A DNA stretch of 31,938 nt, taken from the UHGV virus genome UHGV-0224535; one strand, written 5' to 3'. Source of the DNA: a virus. Numbering within the stretch: the stretch's first letter is position 1; each line of letters starts with the position of its first letter. The notes under the pieces are model-generated. The model was not told the origin of the DNA. It searched no databases and was given only the letters and a program-made list of their open reading frames with translations. The translations under genes were made by a program, and so were the position numbers. Below are positions 17,615 through 23,383 of the stretch, piece after piece.

Positions 17615-17626
17615 AAGGTGAATACT

Positions 17627-18304
17627 ATGATCCATGTTCGTACAGGGCAATTTGCGGCTGTGGTGAACGGTAAGCGCTATGAGTTTAATCCTTGCTTTGC
17701 TGCGATGGCTAAAATCGGCAACGATAGTGAGCTTGTCGAATATTTCGCACTTATCCACGGCAGCAAATACCCTTCACGATTACCTACAGATCCAGACCTC
17801 CGCAAACGCATTATGGCACGGTGTTATGGTGAGATAGTGCAAACGTCAATGCGCATCCTGAAATGTTGCTCAGACGACGAAACAGGCCCGTTATTGGGCA
17901 AATGTAGGTTTACTCCTTCTGGTAAATTGAGACTAAAACCCGGACTGATGCCTACAAGTGATGTTATCACGCTGGCGCAACATTGCATGTACCACGGTTT
18001 AATTGGTGACGGGCCGGAAGAAGACACGGGCGCGATCCAGGAAGGCGAGTACAAGCCGACATTTGACGTACTTGAGTTTGTTTATTCTGCCGTTGCTCAC
18101 CTGGGATTGTCAGAATCAGAAGCATGGAATATGACAATGACCGGATACAGGGCCGCAGTGCGCGCTAAAACGCCGCCAGACGAAAGAAATGAAAGAAGTA
18201 GACCAAATGTTCACATAAATAAACGTGCTTATGACGAGCAAATGGAGGCCGCTAAAAAGGCACTGGAAAGAATGAAAAATAGCAAGCAAGAAAAAGCCCG
18301 GTAG
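17627..18304 (+). CDS. putative tail assembly chaperone (position of lambda G/GT)
   Basis: AGGTGA 6 nt before ATG 17627; sits between the major tail protein and the tape measure gene; no frameshift extension found. Confidence 0.5.
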   Translation: MIHVRTGQFAAVVNGKRYEFNPCFAAMAKIGNDSELVEYFALIHGSKYPSRLPTDPDLRKRIMARCYGEIVQTSMRILKCCSDDETGPLLGKCRFTPSGKLRLKPGLMPTSDVITLAQHCMYHGLIGDGPEEDTGAIQEGEYKPTFDVLEFVYSAVAHLGLSESEAWNMTMTGYRAAVRAKTPPDERNERSRPNVHINKRAYDEQMEAAKKALERMKNSKQEKAR

Positions 18305-18319: not shown

Positions 18320-18733
18320 TTATTTGATTCTAATAATATCAATAAACCCGTTACCCAAATCTACAATTGCGTAATTTTTTGCGCCCGCGCCGCCTTCATT
18401 AAAAATTCTTTCCGCGAAAGCAACTTTATTTGCCTTGCACTCGTTTGCTATCCTGTTTTTTATTTCGCTATTATTTTCAAAGACTACGCCTACAGCAGCC
18501 TCGTTTACAAGGCCATAATTAAACCAGCGAGCATAAACTGGTTTACCTTCAAATTTTTTATCAATTGCCTTAAAAAGAATTGCTGGCGCGGCTGGTTCTT
18601 TTTTGATCATGTCGTGATATGCTGCTACATGGTTTGCCACTTCTTCACAGTTAATGCTTATGGCCTCGTTAGCGTTCGCGTTAAATGCGAGTGCGGCAAT
18701 CACAGTAAGTGCCATTTTTGCTAACCGTTTCAT
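18320..18733 (-). CDS. secreted protein of unknown function (signal peptide MKRLAKMALTVIAALAFNANA), opposite-strand insert in the tail module
   Basis: AGGAG 6 nt before ATG 18733; typical Sec signal with an ANA cleavage site; AT-rich relative to its neighbours. Confidence 0.7.
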   Translation of the reverse strand: MKRLAKMALTVIAALAFNANANEAISINCEEVANHVAAYHDMIKKEPAAPAILFKAIDKKFEGKPVYARWFNYGLVNEAAVGVVFENNSEIKNRIANECKANKVAFAERIFNEGGAGAKNYAIVDLGNGFIDIIRIK

Positions 18734-18961
18734 AATCAACTCCTACCGCTTATTATGATTTGCTAAATTCTTCCTTTAACTTATTTATACACGCATATTG
18801 TTTATTTTTTAAGTGCTTTTAACATTTCTTCGATGAAATCCGCATAGCGTTCATGTTCGTTGGGGCGGTAGTTTGCGTTTTTCATTTTCTTGTCCCCTTT
18901 TGCTTCCTCCGGTTAATCCGGCCTTTTAAATCCATTTGCTCTATCCCTTCCCTTTAGCTTC

Positions 18962-19042: not shown

Positions 19043-21382
19043 ATGGCTACCAGTGTAGGTACAATTTATTACGAAGTTGATGCGAAAACTGGTCAACTTC
19101 TCGTTGCACAACGACAGGCAGACCAGGCCTTTGATCGTATAGAGCGCGGCGCAAAACAGGCTGACCGCCAGGTAAACACCCTGAAAACATCCATCAAGGC
19201 ACTGACCAGGGTTATCCATTTGCTAATTGCTGCCGAGGCTGTGCGCCAATTTATGGATATGGCGGAGCAAGCAAAAATGCTTCGCGTAAAAATCAAAATG
19301 CTTACGGGCGATGCAGAGTCCGCCGGACGGGTTTTTGACGGCCTGAAAGCAATATCCAGGGAGACGGGTCAGAGCCTGAAGGATACTGGCGAACTATGGC
19401 AAGGCCTGGCTATCTCACTGAAGAACACGTCAGCTACCGAAGGTCAATTACTTAACCTTGTCGGCACTATTCAGAAAATGGGGGCGTTAGGCGGTGCGTC
19501 AGCAGAGCAAATGTCAAACTCTATGCGCCAGTTCCGCCAGTCTATAGACGGCGGCGTGCTGCGTGCTGAAGAATTTAACAGCCTACTTGAAAACACCCCG
19601 ACCATCGTACAAACAATGGCCCGCCATATGGGATTATCAATGGGCCAGTTCCGCGCCGAAATGCTGGACGGTAAGATCACGGCAGAAAGGATGGTTAACG
19701 CAATCCAGGCGGCTACGCAGGAAACAAACGAGAAGTTTGCGCAGTTGCCGCGCACATCCGGCACGGCTATCAATGAACTAAAAGTCGAGGTAATGGGTCT
19801 GGTGGAACAACTGGACGATCTTTTCGGTGTATCAGATGGCGTAGTCTCAGCTATCGACTTGATCACAAAAGGAGTTAATGGGCTAGGTGAGGGCGCTAAA
19901 TTCGCTAAAACCTGCTTTGATACGCTCAAAACGGCTGGTAGCGAATTCATCGACATGTTTGATGATGTGGCTGTGAAGGCTGGCGAGGTGGCAGAGAAGA
20001 TCATCGCAATGGTGACGCCAATCAAGGCGCTAATGGATGGCTATAAATGGATGAAAGAGATTGTCGATGAACGCAAGGAAGAACTAAACAGCAACAACGA
20101 GAAAAAATTTGGCCCTACCATCGGTAAATTCATGACGTTTAAAAACGACATTGAAAAGGCGACCGCCGCTTATGACGAGCTTATGCAGAAACAGGCAGAA
20201 GCCAACGACGGAGCTATTACCGGATTCGATAAGCCAGTTGATAAGCCGAAAAAACAGAAAAAAGAGAAGAAATCGGAAGCTGATCGGCTTGGAGACAAGG
20301 GCATAAGCGTTTCTGATCAGTACAACAAAGACGCCGCCGCCATGCGCAAAGCGTTAGAGAACGGCAAGGCCATTGATGCTGCGTTCGCCCAGGGTAAAAT
20401 CACACTCCTTGAGTACCGCGCCGCGCAAAAAGGGATCGGCAAGGAACTGAAAGAAGAATTAGCGCAGATCCCGGTAGATGAATTGCGTGATAAATGGTCG
20501 CAAATAGTTAGCCCAATGGACCAGCTAAAAGGCGAAGTTGACCCTATCCAGCAGGCGCAAAATGAATGGGCCGTCCGTAAGCAAATGCTTATCGACCTGG
20601 GCGCTACAGAAGCACAACAGAAACAGGAATTATTAGCCTATGAGCAGCAGATCCGCGATCTGAAGTGGGAACAGTGGCAGGCGCAAAGCCAGACAAACGG
20701 CCTGATCGGTGATTGCGTTAATGGCCTTAAAGGTGGCATGAGCAATGCGCTTGTTGGCCTGCTTAACGGTACTCAATCATTGAGCGATGTTTTTGCTAAC
20801 TTAGGCAGCAATATACTTGGGAATATCGGTAACAGACTTTCGGACATAGCTGCCAACTGGATAGCAGATCAAATCATGATGGAGACACAAAGCAAAGCCA
20901 CGCAGGCCAGCACAACGGCAAGCGCGGTTGCCGCTCAGGGAAGCATTGCGGCGGCGGCGGCCCCGGCGGCGGCAGCGACAGCGGCATCAACTGGCGGTAG
21001 CTGGGCGGCGGCTGGCTCGGCGGCGCTTACTGCGATCATGTCGCTGGCAACATCCATTTTCGGCGGCGGGCGCTTTAATGGTGGTAGCGTAATTGGTGGC
21101 AATATGTACCGCGTCGGGGAACATAACAGGCCGGAGCTATTCCAGACGTCTAACGGCAACCAATACATGATCCCCGGCGAGAATGGCAGGGTTATCCCGG
21201 GCCGTGATATTGGCGGCGGCGGCGGTATCAGTATGCCTGTTTACATCGACATTCAAACCACAAACGGATTTAGTGACGAAGACAGCCGCAGACTTGAACA
21301 GACAATGGAACGTGTAGCCATGAAAATGATAACAAGGGAATCGCAAAGACCTGGCGGGATGTTGCAACCGCGCCGCAAATAA
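19043..21382 (+). CDS. tail tape measure protein
   Basis: 779 aa, largely helical, with a Gly/Ala-rich segment; position between chaperone and minor tail genes. Confidence 0.9.
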   Translation: MATSVGTIYYEVDAKTGQLLVAQRQADQAFDRIERGAKQADRQVNTLKTSIKALTRVIHLLIAAEAVRQFMDMAEQAKMLRVKIKMLTGDAESAGRVFDGLKAISRETGQSLKDTGELWQGLAISLKNTSATEGQLLNLVGTIQKMGALGGASAEQMSNSMRQFRQSIDGGVLRAEEFNSLLENTPTIVQTMARHMGLSMGQFRAEMLDGKITAERMVNAIQAATQETNEKFAQLPRTSGTAINELKVEVMGLVEQLDDLFGVSDGVVSAIDLITKGVNGLGEGAKFAKTCFDTLKTAGSEFIDMFDDVAVKAGEVAEKIIAMVTPIKALMDGYKWMKEIVDERKEELNSNNEKKFGPTIGKFMTFKNDIEKATAAYDELMQKQAEANDGAITGFDKPVDKPKKQKKEKKSEADRLGDKGISVSDQYNKDAAAMRKALENGKAIDAAFAQGKITLLEYRAAQKGIGKELKEELAQIPVDELRDKWSQIVSPMDQLKGEVDPIQQAQNEWAVRKQMLIDLGATEAQQKQELLAYEQQIRDLKWEQWQAQSQTNGLIGDCVNGLKGGMSNALVGLLNGTQSLSDVFANLGSNILGNIGNRLSDIAANWIADQIMMETQSKATQASTTASAVAAQGSIAAAAAPAAAATAASTGGSWAAAGSAALTAIMSLATSIFGGGRFNGGSVIGGNMYRVGEHNRPELFQTSNGNQYMIPGENGRVIPGRDIGGGGGISMPVYIDIQTTNGFSDEDSRRLEQTMERVAMKMITRESQRPGGMLQPRRK

Positions 21383-21386
21383 CACT

Positions 21387-21413
21387 AAGGCCGCTATAAG
21401 CGGCCTTTATTTT
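21387..21413 (+). terminator. rho-independent terminator (AAGGCCGC-TATAA-GCGGCCTT followed by TATTTT)
   Basis: Read directly, 5 nt after the tape measure stop. Confidence 0.65.
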
Positions 21414-21519
21414 ACATGGTAAGGATATAAATTAAACAGCACAGGAATGCGGGCGCGGCGAAGTCGCAAACGCTAGCCATATTCCATGCTTTTGGTAAAA
21501 AACCACCATACCACGGCAT
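21412..21519 (-). CDS. possible small hydrophobic protein (35 aa from an internal ATG)
   Basis: GGAGGG RBS before the ATG; C-terminal half is hydrophobic (FAAPAFLCCLIYILTM); weak. Confidence 0.25.
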   Translation of the reverse strand: MPWYGGFLPKAWNMASVCDFAAPAFLCCLIYILTM

Positions 21520-21562
21520 TCTTTCTCGTTTCCCTCCGCAAAATTCCGCTATGTAACGATAT

Positions 21563-21697
21563 TCAGCCTGTGTGTTCCCGCGCAAAAAAGAATGTACATC
21601 CAATCAGGCCGCCAGTGAGATAATCGCCAGTAAGCAGGCCGATAACAACCTGTATAGTCGCCGCAGCCAGTGCGTGACCAATAACGGTTAAATCCAT
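21563..21697 (-). CDS. small membrane protein (44 aa, one TM helix)
   Basis: GGGAGG 7 nt before the ATG; MDLTVIGHALAAATIQVVIGLLTGDYLTGGLIG...; start is 2 nt after the upstream gene stop. Confidence 0.4.
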   Translation of the reverse strand: MDLTVIGHALAAATIQVVIGLLTGDYLTGGLIGCTFFFAREHTG

Positions 21698-21699
21698 CG

Positions 21700-21885
21700 T
21701 TAATCCTCCCGATCGTTCTCAAATGTGCCATCTACAAATTTTTGCAGCCCGGCGATAAGTTGTGTTGCCTGCGATTTTTCAATCACTATGGTTTCAGTCC
21801 CCATAAGTTCGGTTATCCACAGCCGACCATCCTCATCAAGATCTAACCTAACTCCGTAACATAACTCTGTTTCGTCAATAATCAT
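21700..21885 (-). CDS. hypothetical acidic protein (61 aa)
   Basis: Strong RBS AGGAGG; track ORF. Confidence 0.6.
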   Translation of the reverse strand: MIIDETELCYGVRLDLDEDGRLWITELMGTETIVIEKSQATQLIAGLQKFVDGTFENDRED

Positions 21886-21994
21886 TTTTCCTCCTATAAT
21901 CTTCCGTTACGTGCGACGTAACCCCTGCCGAACATCACTAACCAGATGTTCCAGATCTCCCGCTAGGTATATTTCTCCTCCTCCATATTCCACC

Positions 21995-22249
21995 TCACTT
22001 ATGAGCGCCTTTCACTCCGCAATGACGGTTGTATTCCAGGTGATCGATAATTAACCAAATATTCAAATCTTCACTGAACAGCCGCCAGTCAGGATTGATA
22101 TCGAATTTAAAGCCATAACCATCACGTAATTTTTTGGGGCGGGCTTCTTTTTTCAGGAAGGCGTTAAGCAACTTCTTGCCTTTCTTGATTACCCGTTCCT
22201 GTGCATTCTTTTGTGCTTTCAGGTTTTTTTCGATAGTTACCAGTTTCAT
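21995..22249 (-). CDS. hypothetical basic protein (84 aa)
   Basis: Track ORF; GGGTGAG RBS; Lys-rich N-terminus (KKGKKLLNAFLKKEARPKKLR). Confidence 0.55.
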   Translation of the reverse strand: MKLVTIEKNLKAQKNAQERVIKKGKKLLNAFLKKEARPKKLRDGYGFKFDINPDWRLFSEDLNIWLIIDHLEYNRHCGVKGAHK

Positions 22250-22266
22250 AACTCACCCCATCGTCC

Positions 22267-22422
22267 TTAGTTAAGCGCCCTCAGGAAGAAATCCCGGTAT
22301 TCATCATCCTTCGCGTTCATCATGAATTGACCGTATTTGAATGCGTCGTCGAAACCCTTAACAATTGCTACTTCCACTTGCTCGAATGCGTTGTTTAGCA
22401 TCACTACTACATAGCTACTCAT
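22267..22422 (-). CDS. hypothetical small protein (51 aa)
   Basis: GTGAGG RBS before the ATG; MSSYVVVMLNNAFEQVEVAIVKGFDDAFKYGQFMMNAKDDEYRDFFLRALN*; first gene of the minus-strand island. Confidence 0.45.
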   Translation of the reverse strand: MSSYVVVMLNNAFEQVEVAIVKGFDDAFKYGQFMMNAKDDEYRDFFLRALN

Positions 22423-22535
22423 TTTTGGGCCTCACTTGCTGGTACCGCTTTTCTTCTTGCTTCCTGTATACAGCTTGTTGCTTCATGTGTGAATCCATAT
22501 TGTAAACTAGCTATAATTCTTGTGATGAATATCTC

Positions 22536-22560
22536 ATTTTTCGCGTAGAAGCGCGTAAAG
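22536..22560 (+). promoter_or_regulatory. conserved 25-nt motif ATTTTTCGCGTAGAAGCGCGTAAAG (copy 2), upstream of the gpM-like gene; TATAAT-like element at 22513-22518
   Basis: Matches 10099-10123 at 21 of 25 positions; followed by TACAAAATGTAAC. Confidence 0.45.
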
Positions 22561-22592
22561 ATATATACAAAATGTAACTTACAGGAGGGGGT

Positions 22593-22946
22593 ATGCCGGA
22601 AGTGTTCAGATGGACACCACAGAGAAGCTACAGCGTAAACAGTGAGCCTAACGTGTCCGTTATCAAGCTGGGCGATGGCTATGAACAGCGCCAGACAAAA
22701 GGGATTAATCCACTACTTGACAGCTATACGCTGGTCTTTAAAGGTACGAGCGCCGGATGCGGTGACGCCGGAAACGTGGCGCTCCAGGTTGACGCATTTT
22801 TAAGAGCACGTTGCGCGGTCGAGGCGTTTTACTGGACGCCATCTACAGACGGAGTGAAAAGGCTTTTTGTATGCCGAAAGTGGAGCATGGCGAAAGACGG
22901 CCCGGTATGCACTCTGAATGCAACGTTTGAACAAGTTATCAATTAA
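22593..22946 (+). CDS. minor tail protein, lambda gpM-like
   Basis: 117 aa; ...KLGDGYEQRQ... and C-terminal FEQVIN resemble lambda M (remembered FEQVVN); sits upstream of the L/K/I/J set. Confidence 0.75.
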   Translation: MPEVFRWTPQRSYSVNSEPNVSVIKLGDGYEQRQTKGINPLLDSYTLVFKGTSAGCGDAGNVALQVDAFLRARCAVEAFYWTPSTDGVKRLFVCRKWSMAKDGPVCTLNATFEQVIN

Positions 22947-22959
22947 TGGAGAAGTCAAT

Positions 22960-23145
22960 ATGTATGCTATTTGTGTAGTTGACCGCACGGGCGCTTTTAC
23001 ATTATTTGACGACTATGAAATCAAAGATCTTACCGTAAAGGCTGACAATGGCGAGATCTGGTATCTTCATGACGTTGGTGACGGGTATGTCGGATGCAGA
23101 TCGAGAGAGGGTAGGGAAGTTTTATTCTTGCTTGATGGCGTATAA
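22960..23145 (+). CDS. hypothetical small protein (61 aa) between gpM-like and the minus-strand island
   Basis: GGAG RBS then ATG 22960; followed by a strong terminator. Confidence 0.45.
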   Translation: MYAICVVDRTGAFTLFDDYEIKDLTVKADNGEIWYLHDVGDGYVGCRSREGREVLFLLDGV

Positions 23146-23151
23146 ACACTA

Positions 23152-23179
23152 CCCCGCGCGAAGCGGGGTTATTATTATT
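23152..23179 (+). terminator. rho-independent terminator (CCCCGC-GCGAA-GCGGGG followed by TTATTATTATT)
   Basis: Read directly. Confidence 0.65.
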
Positions 23180-23291
23180 CCATTTCCATTAACGCTATAT
23201 TTTCCGCTATCGTTTTCCAGTCCAGATCTACAGCATGAACACCAAATACTATCAATCCCATTGCGATTAGTGCTAAAACTTCGATTTTCAT
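23175..23291 (-). CDS. small hydrophobic or secreted peptide (38 aa, MKIEVLALIAMGLIVFGVHAVDLDWKTIAENIALMEME)
   Basis: GTGAGG RBS; hydrophobic N-terminus. Confidence 0.35.
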   Translation of the reverse strand: MKIEVLALIAMGLIVFGVHAVDLDWKTIAENIALMEME

Positions 23292-23383
23292 AATCAACCT
23301 CACTTAATTAAGAAAGGCATAAACGATGACAATCGCGCCAGCCACTACCAAAACGTTTTCGATTACTTCGTCCACTCTATTCA

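Follow-up and report, generated by a model that had tools for sequence, protein, structure and literature searches.

An antisense accessory operon with a probable toxin-like core in the tail gene region of mEp021-like coliphages

Why would a temperate phage keep a string of small genes antisense to its own late tail operon? The question is raised by the virus genome UHGV-0224535, analysed here as a stretch of 31,938 nucleotides (the window). About 1 kb of its minus strand, between the tape measure protein gene and the gene for a gpM-like minor tail protein, holds an island of five small genes, here called p51, p84, p30, p61 and p95 (Table 1). The phage is an mEp021-like (mEpimmI) temperate coliphage, and its late operon must be read through the island, from the tape measure gene to gpM, L, K, I and J. 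We favour reading the stretch as an accessory operon of such phages, self-contained and of the 'moron' type, with a toxin-like core of predicted RelE/ParE fold. What this core does is best explained, if tentatively, by a toxin-antitoxin (TA)-like operon, with p84 as a probable mRNA interferase and p51 as its inhibitor-like partner. As morons go, the island is ordinary, though uncharacterised, and both Pfam and NCBI already have a label for its key protein.

Gene content and conservation of the island

The original prediction, made from the DNA letters, had described an operon-like string of four minus-strand open reading frames (ORFs) of 51, 84, 61 and 44 amino acids (aa), placed between the tape measure and gpM-like genes. 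All four ORFs are present, and Pfam matches on the flanks (PF20155 and PF05939) confirm the placement. The number of genes has to be raised to five: the 44-aa ORF is a fragment of p95, and p30 had been overlooked. Two of the five are broken in the window copy, p30 by an amber codon and p95 by a frameshift.

A 52-kb IMG/VR contig (IMGVR_UViG_2541047752_000007) is 100% identical to the window, and the closest kin are mEp021-like temperate coliphages and E. coli prophages. Phages of this mEpimmI type have been characterised and reported to be a prevalent gut coliphage group (PMC11893012); the island genes are not discussed in that paper. They are kept in about 46 related phages and 33 E. coli genomes, so that the check named by the original prediction, conservation of the ORFs in relatives, came out in its favour. 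Across 45 related viral contigs, the ratio of non-synonymous to synonymous substitution rates (dN/dS) is 0.045 for p51, 0.076 for p84, 0.126 for p61 and 0.059 for p95; for the neighbouring tail genes it is 0.099 (C-terminus of the tape measure protein) and 0.069 (gpM). All five island genes are under strong purifying selection in related phages, with dN/dS between 0.05 and 0.13.

Not all of them are equally constant in occurrence. p51 and p84 form the conserved core of the island, and the distal genes are exchangeable cargo. We found p84 in 46 of the 46 loci examined, with p51 directly upstream (at 17 nt) in 44 of these and never without p84. Present in every relative found with this one reservation about p51, the pair is near-core for this phage group.

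The claim of an accessory module within a late structural operon holds up on several grounds: the genes are antisense, their GC content is lower (0.43-0.45, against 0.48-0.60 in the neighbours), the GC skew is inverted, a bidirectional terminator is present and the distal genes vary. Among these are the usual marks of a moron, namely the terminator, the deviating composition and a content that is variable among relatives. E. coli prophage relatives keep the terminator hairpin, and the annotations of mEp021 and mEp010 list it as a terminator.

Family, modelled fold and conserved residues of p84

The description of the 84-aa protein as Lys-rich was correct: p84 contains 15 Lys and 5 Arg and has an isoelectric point (pI) of 9.95. 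It matches the Pfam family PF24732 (ParE_like) at E 9.2e-11 with 42 bits, the gathering score being 24.4, and all distant homologues that we found likewise match PF24732. Homologues are labelled 'ParE family toxin-like protein' by NCBI and 'YafQ-like ribonuclease toxin' or 'HigB-like' by other annotators. The original verdict of a module of unknown function can therefore be sharpened, p84 being a Pfam ParE_like member with a modelled RelE/YoeB-type toxin fold.

By sequence the family is narrow, since a full-sensitivity search of 1.84 billion representatives returned only 8 proteins at E < 1e-3 for p84, and it is almost entirely phage-borne. No Pfam or NCBIfam family other than PF24732 matches p84 at E <= 1, the classical ParE_toxin model included. 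A scan of genome contigs with the p84 profile gave no confirmed locus, and a literature search on PF24732 found no papers.

A first AlphaFold2 (AF2) model of p84, built from close homologues only, was discarded: its predicted local distance difference test score (pLDDT) was 69, its predicted template modelling score (pTM) 0.34, and its Foldseek hits were meaningless. Built from a diverse alignment reaching down to 23% identity, the model attained a pLDDT of 87.8 and a pTM of 0.76. Its topology is a beta-hairpin, a helix, four strands and a C-terminal helix. The model shows a toxin-type fold as in RelE, YoeB, HigB and YafQ, with an antiparallel sheet packed against the N-terminal helix. The likeness to the RelE, YoeB, YafQ and HigB interferases is one of fold, with no detectable sequence or profile similarity, and where these have two N-terminal helices p84 has the beta-hairpin and a single helix.

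In both fold searches, ribonuclease (RNase) members rank above ParE members, most of them with about twice the residue identity; ParE structures share 6-7% identity with p84 in the structural alignment. The hits include the complex 5czf, which we take to be of the PaaA2-ParE2 type, from the PaaR2-PaaA2-ParE2 system. T4 RegB is absent from the hits.

Over the alignment down to 23% identity, residues K40, L41, R56, H70 and N74 are invariant and Y73 is nearly so. In the AF2 model, the conserved residues are placed before strand 2, in strand 3 and at the junction of strand 4 with the C-terminal helix. Judged by this placement among strands and helices, they probably lie where RelE and YoeB carry their catalytic residues. 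From these positions and the high pI we infer that p84 is an mRNA interferase rather than a gyrase poison.

The gene has been broken independently in some relatives. Locus L036 (3970-4010) has lost one nucleotide in an A7 run, E. coli PAR (locus L004, 3199-3453) carries an N-terminal disruption, and p84 is truncated also in Ecol_244. Of the 55 database clusters of p84 proteins, about 11 are truncated forms. The many A-runs in p84 may make the gene mutation-prone or error-prone.

A toxin with its partner or an effector alone

Several features favour a TA pair. The acidic p51 stands directly upstream of the basic p84, in the classical order and with the classical charges; the two are tightly linked and both are constrained. 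In addition, there are lineages in which p84 is disrupted while p51 is intact, namely E. coli PAR and L036.

In the mechanism that we propose, the island would be transcribed against the late tail operon, from a promoter region beside gpM to the terminator behind the tape measure gene. p84 would act as a translation-directed endoribonuclease (mRNA interferase) and not as a gyrase poison, and p51 as a small acidic antitoxin devoid of a DNA-binding domain, inhibiting p84 as PaaA2 does ParE2. Expressed in the lysogen, the pair could serve as an addiction or abortive-infection module; during lytic growth, the head-on, antiterminated late transcription through the island would switch it off. At the distal end, p95 may act at the inner membrane, for instance in superinfection exclusion, although p95 and p30 are probably non-functional in the window copy.

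Both the lysogenic expression and the shut-off by late transcription are proposed by analogy with two known loci. HK97 gp15 is a superinfection exclusion moron that lies in the tail operon beside the tape measure gene; it has a promoter and a terminator of its own, a deviating GC content and a small inner-membrane product (PMC3594210). The island resembles it in layout, composition and type of product, having a terminator, a low GC content and the small membrane protein p95, but it is an antisense group of five genes, and in the window copy the one for the membrane protein is broken. In phi80, the taiEcA/atiEcA 'non-contiguous operon' has a defence gene in divergent orientation within the late operon, which depends on Q, and late transcription has been proposed as its off-switch (PMC11364771). 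This geometry equals that of the island. There is, however, no evidence of sequence kinship, the usual place of the Tai genes is upstream of the packaging module, and Tai stands for tail-assembly interference, whereas the function that we propose for the island is RNase-based.

A number of results weigh against pairing p84 with p51 as toxin and antitoxin. No antitoxin or DNA-binding domain was recognised in p51, which has no match in Pfam, NCBIfam, PADLOC or the PDB; this is not decisive, because exceptions such as PaaA2 exist. p84 is found intact with p51 absent (the metagenomic L025, L034, E. coli UMNK88). In the complete genome of UMNK88 and in L025, p51 is removed exactly from ATG to ATG and the invariant residues of p84 are all kept, so p51 is not an essential antidote. 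Pairwise allele identities of p51 and p84 are uncorrelated (r = 0.09), and the same p51 allele is found beside p84 alleles whose identity to that of the window is 60-89%. For p84 itself, the fold scores are moderate, phmmer and hmmsearch runs against the PDB gave no match, and hhalign comparison with E. coli RelE, YoeB and YafQ gave a probability below 1%. PADLOC matched no island protein at E <= 1, and p95 and the proteins of a neighbouring island had no match at E <= 0.1. The candidate island promoter, with 9 of 12 matching positions, is no better than chance (8 sites found, 6.9 expected). Finally, the neighbours of PF24732 genes in lytic and jumbo phages are mutually unrelated, with no antitoxin annotated beside them.

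Comparison with established TA systems brings out the same differences. Set beside RelE-type modules, the island has in p51 a protein with no antitoxin or DNA-binding domain, dispensable in one lineage, and in p84 a member of an essentially phage-confined family. PaaR2-PaaA2-ParE2 is a system of E. coli O157:H7 prophages. The island has no gene equivalent to the regulator gene paaR2, p51 lacks similarity to any PDB chain, PaaA2 included, and the residue pattern of p84, which sets it apart from ParE2, fits the RNase branch and not gyrase poisoning.

A second account is possible, though less probable: p84 would be a stand-alone effector RNase of RelE fold that, like T4 RegB, acts soon after infection or induction to remodel the translation of host or phage mRNA and needs no antitoxin, with p51 as an independent accessory or a non-essential modulator. 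RegB is a phage RNase of RelE/YoeB-like fold with no known antitoxin (PMC3014915). The likeness to it is seen in the PF24732 homologues of T7-like, jumbo (121Q, PBECO4, K64-1) and other lytic phages, which are single genes within early-type small-gene arrays and have no conserved neighbour; the intact p84 of UMNK88 and L025 and the uncoupled alleles point the same way. RegB is, however, an early gene of a virulent phage, whereas p84, from a temperate phage, lies in an antisense island bounded by a terminator and is almost always accompanied by p51. Such a site within the late operon suits lysogenic expression better than an early lytic role. The linkage of p51 to p84 in 44 of 46 loci, its absence from any locus on its own and the very strong purifying selection on it also argue against an effector working alone, as does the lack of RegB among the fold hits. 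It is because of the p51-less lineages, the uncoupled alleles, the solitary homologues and the RegB precedent that we hold the TA-like explanation tentatively and keep the stand-alone effector, at a lower probability, beside it.

A broader idea is more doubtful. PF24732 may represent a phage-specific branch of RelE-fold RNases, partner-independent effectors that range from jumbo lytic phages to temperate coliphages. In mEp021-like phages they would be controlled by gene geometry instead of a classical antitoxin, that is by head-on late transcription together with a conserved, operator-bearing promoter region, and p51 would be a new kind of dispensable modulator.

It is unlikely that p84 has the RelE/ParE fold and is not a nuclease at all. 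It would then serve as a regulator that binds RNA, ribosomes or proteins, or as a decoy against defence (titrating, for example, a host antitoxin or a defence component), with p51 as a partner or unrelated. Such a role is consistent with the lack of sequence similarity to any catalytically characterised member, the different N-terminus with a beta-hairpin and one helix in place of the usual two helices, the tolerance of p84 without p51, and the almost entirely phage-borne family. Yet Lys, Arg, His and Tyr/Asn stay invariant down to 23% identity at the presumed RelE/YoeB active-site positions, and p84 is very basic, like ribosome-dependent RNases. A ParD/ParE-type pair with p84 poisoning DNA gyrase is quite improbable: RNase members outrank ParE in both fold searches, the conserved Arg, His and Tyr form a pattern characteristic of RNase members, and the classical ParE_toxin model gave no match at E <= 1. 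That the ORFs are chance frames or decaying junk between tail genes, as the disruption of two of the five in the window and the relatives devoid of any cargo might suggest, is refuted by the selection analysis, every gene having a dN/dS like that of tail genes, and retention in the phages and E. coli genomes counted above, the curated Pfam match and the confident fold model of p84 also speak against it.

Should p84 prove to be an active RNase of RelE type, the tail operon of mEp021-like phages would have a toxin gene in its midst, by which the prophage might be stabilised or infection by other phages aborted. The family members in jumbo and T7-like phages would in that case amount to a widespread, unstudied class of phage nucleases that target translation. 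The p51-less E. coli UMNK88 lineage offers a natural test of whether such a toxin needs an antitoxin. This natural variant and the phage-wide spread of solitary PF24732 homologues are the most interesting loose ends.

Cargo genes, regulatory region and neighbouring loci

Table 1 Coordinates of the island features and of the flanking tail genes in the window
Feature	Position	Strand	Remarks
Tape measure protein gene	19043-21382	+	PF20155, E 2e-50
Bidirectional hairpin terminator	21387..21407		common to tape measure gene (+) and island (-); 9-bp stem, 6 GC pairs, T-run on both strands
p95	21412..21697	-	membrane-protein gene (phrog_1443 / 'Ybl63'-like), inactivated by frameshift; intact 95-aa ORF in relatives
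63-aa ORF	21603..21412	-	holds 3' part of p95; overlaps 44-aa ORF
44-aa ORF	21697..21563	-	5' part of p95; GGGAGG and TAA-cg-ATG after p61
2-bp deletion site in p95	21569..21574	-	(CA)3, against (CA)4 in relatives (DNA alignment)
p61	21700..21885	-	small acidic protein (pI 4.05, phrog_13627), variable cargo
p30	21894..21986	-	30-codon microprotein gene; amber at codon 8 (21963-21965) in window
p84	21995..22249	-	basic protein, predicted RelE/ParE-superfamily fold (Pfam PF24732 ParE_like), conserved core gene
p51	22267..22422	-	51-aa small acidic protein (pI 4.46, phrog_29810), first operon gene, near-constant partner of p84
Divergent regulatory region between p51 and gpM	22423..22592		170 bp, conserved
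Candidate sigma-70-like island promoter	-35 ATCACA 22526-22521, -10 TACAAT 22504-22499	-	16-nt spacer
Two TGTATAYA palindromic motifs	22465-22472 and 22562-22569		flank predicted island promoter
gpM-like minor tail protein gene	22593-22946		PF05939, E 2e-28

The 44-aa single-transmembrane peptide had been predicted as a separate gene, translationally coupled to its upstream neighbour. The signals ahead of it, TAA-cg-ATG with GGGAGG, are as described; the ORF itself is the 5' end, cut off by a frameshift, of a gene for a 95-aa membrane protein. On phrog_1443, a family of 95-97 aa, it covers positions 1-43 and the 63-aa ORF positions 40-94, and a single intact 95-aa p95 ORF is found in E. coli PAR, GN05505, KKa019, L021, L029 and L036. 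In a DNA alignment with relatives, the window is short by 2 bp within a CACACACA run. A programmed ribosomal frameshift linking the 44- and 63-aa ORFs was rejected on account of the uninterrupted 95-aa ORF of the relatives and of the slippery heptamer, which was looked for at the frameshift site and not found. For the same two reasons, and because L036 has p95 intact at 99% identity to the window, we attribute the frameshift to a recent mutation or a sequencing error.

Homologues of p95 ('Ybl63', about 53% identity) occur in lambda-like phages, directly after side tail fibre genes. Cluster look-ups of p95, p61 and p30 gave no names other than 'hypothetical' or 'Ybl63'. In the lambda-like Escherichia phage 1H12 (L008, 2886-5282), the p95 homologue adjoins genes annotated as the manganese ABC transporter permeases SitC and SitD, an unusual phage cargo.

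p61 answers to its description as an acidic 61-aa protein with a perfect ribosome-binding site (RBS), as its pI is 4.05 and AGGAGG stands 4 nt ahead of the ATG. Homologues at 47-53% identity are present in mEp010, mEp044, mEp515 and many IMG/VR relatives. The RBS of p61 is overlapped by the stop codon of p30. Codon 8 of p30 is TAG in the window and L036 and TGG in relatives, and the window copy translates as MEEEKYT*REIWNIWLVMFGRGYVARNGRL*. The gene is uninterrupted in mEp010, MagusPhagus and 23 IMG/VR loci, with a dN/dS of 0.076.

Cargo is absent in about ten loci; such 'pair-only' relatives retain a 3' remnant of p30. Other forms are p30 with m55, p30 with m55 and a p61-like gene, and p30 with p61 and p95, as in the window. 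The cargo of mEp021 (L001, 1683-3017) consists of two zinc-ribbon-repeat proteins, the second of which (157 aa) has a weak PADLOC match to PDC-S57 (E 0.0027). In L060 (4243-4749), a gene for a 168-aa homing endonuclease of HNH-AP2 type is inserted directly 3' of p84, and L052 (4253-5056) has an unrelated insertion of about 800 bp at the same position. The site after p84 behaves as an insertion hotspot.

Pairwise divergence averages 0.14 in the region between p51 and gpM, compared with a synonymous divergence (dS) of 0.7-1.0 in the flanking genes. The region is thus five to seven times more conserved than synonymous sites, and a divergence so far below that of its flanks argues for functional regulatory DNA. 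Both TGTATAYA motifs are conserved in relatives, p51-less ones included, and have no further occurrence in the window. We regard them as candidate operator sites for some regulator, and not as LexA boxes. A putative LexA box in the promoter region, CTGTATACAG, was rejected by eye for its wrong spacing. The top promoter-like match of the region is a plus-strand site within the island (21872-21900, TCGTCA-17-TATAAT, 10/12), directed towards p84, p51 and gpM; its product could be an antisense RNA or a transcript of the tail genes downstream. An Rfam search gave no match.

Gene callers give p51 as 68 aa in many relatives, adding about 17 N-terminal residues from the upstream region. Such an extension is ruled out in the window by an in-frame TGA three codons upstream. 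The start of p51 is overlapped by the terminal TAG of a short minus-strand upstream ORF (22418-22498), which has 27 codons if counted from the ATG at 22498 and 23 if counted from the one at 22486.

The gpM-like gene is separated from the gpL-like gene by another antisense island (23151-24489, minus strand), with four or five ORFs and a GC content of 0.37-0.45. It has a bidirectional terminator (23151-23169) and encodes an 82-aa protein with a KilAC antirepressor domain (23596-23844; PF03374, E 3e-7). Its first gene, of 51 aa in mEp021, has no detectable kinship to p51, and the idea that the two are paralogues was rejected (hhalign probability 0.08). On the other side, the AT-rich stretch 18320-18739 (GC 0.36-0.39) holds a 139-aa minus-strand ORF between the gene for a DUF6246 protein (17618-18304) and the tape measure gene. 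Searches of Pfam and PADLOC gave no match for this ORF, presumably the 'first' opposite-strand island. Finally, a 75-aa plus-strand ORF (22918-23145) with no Pfam match overlaps the end of the gpM-like gene, and at the equivalent place a 186-bp coding sequence is annotated in mEp021, mEp010 and MagusPhagus.

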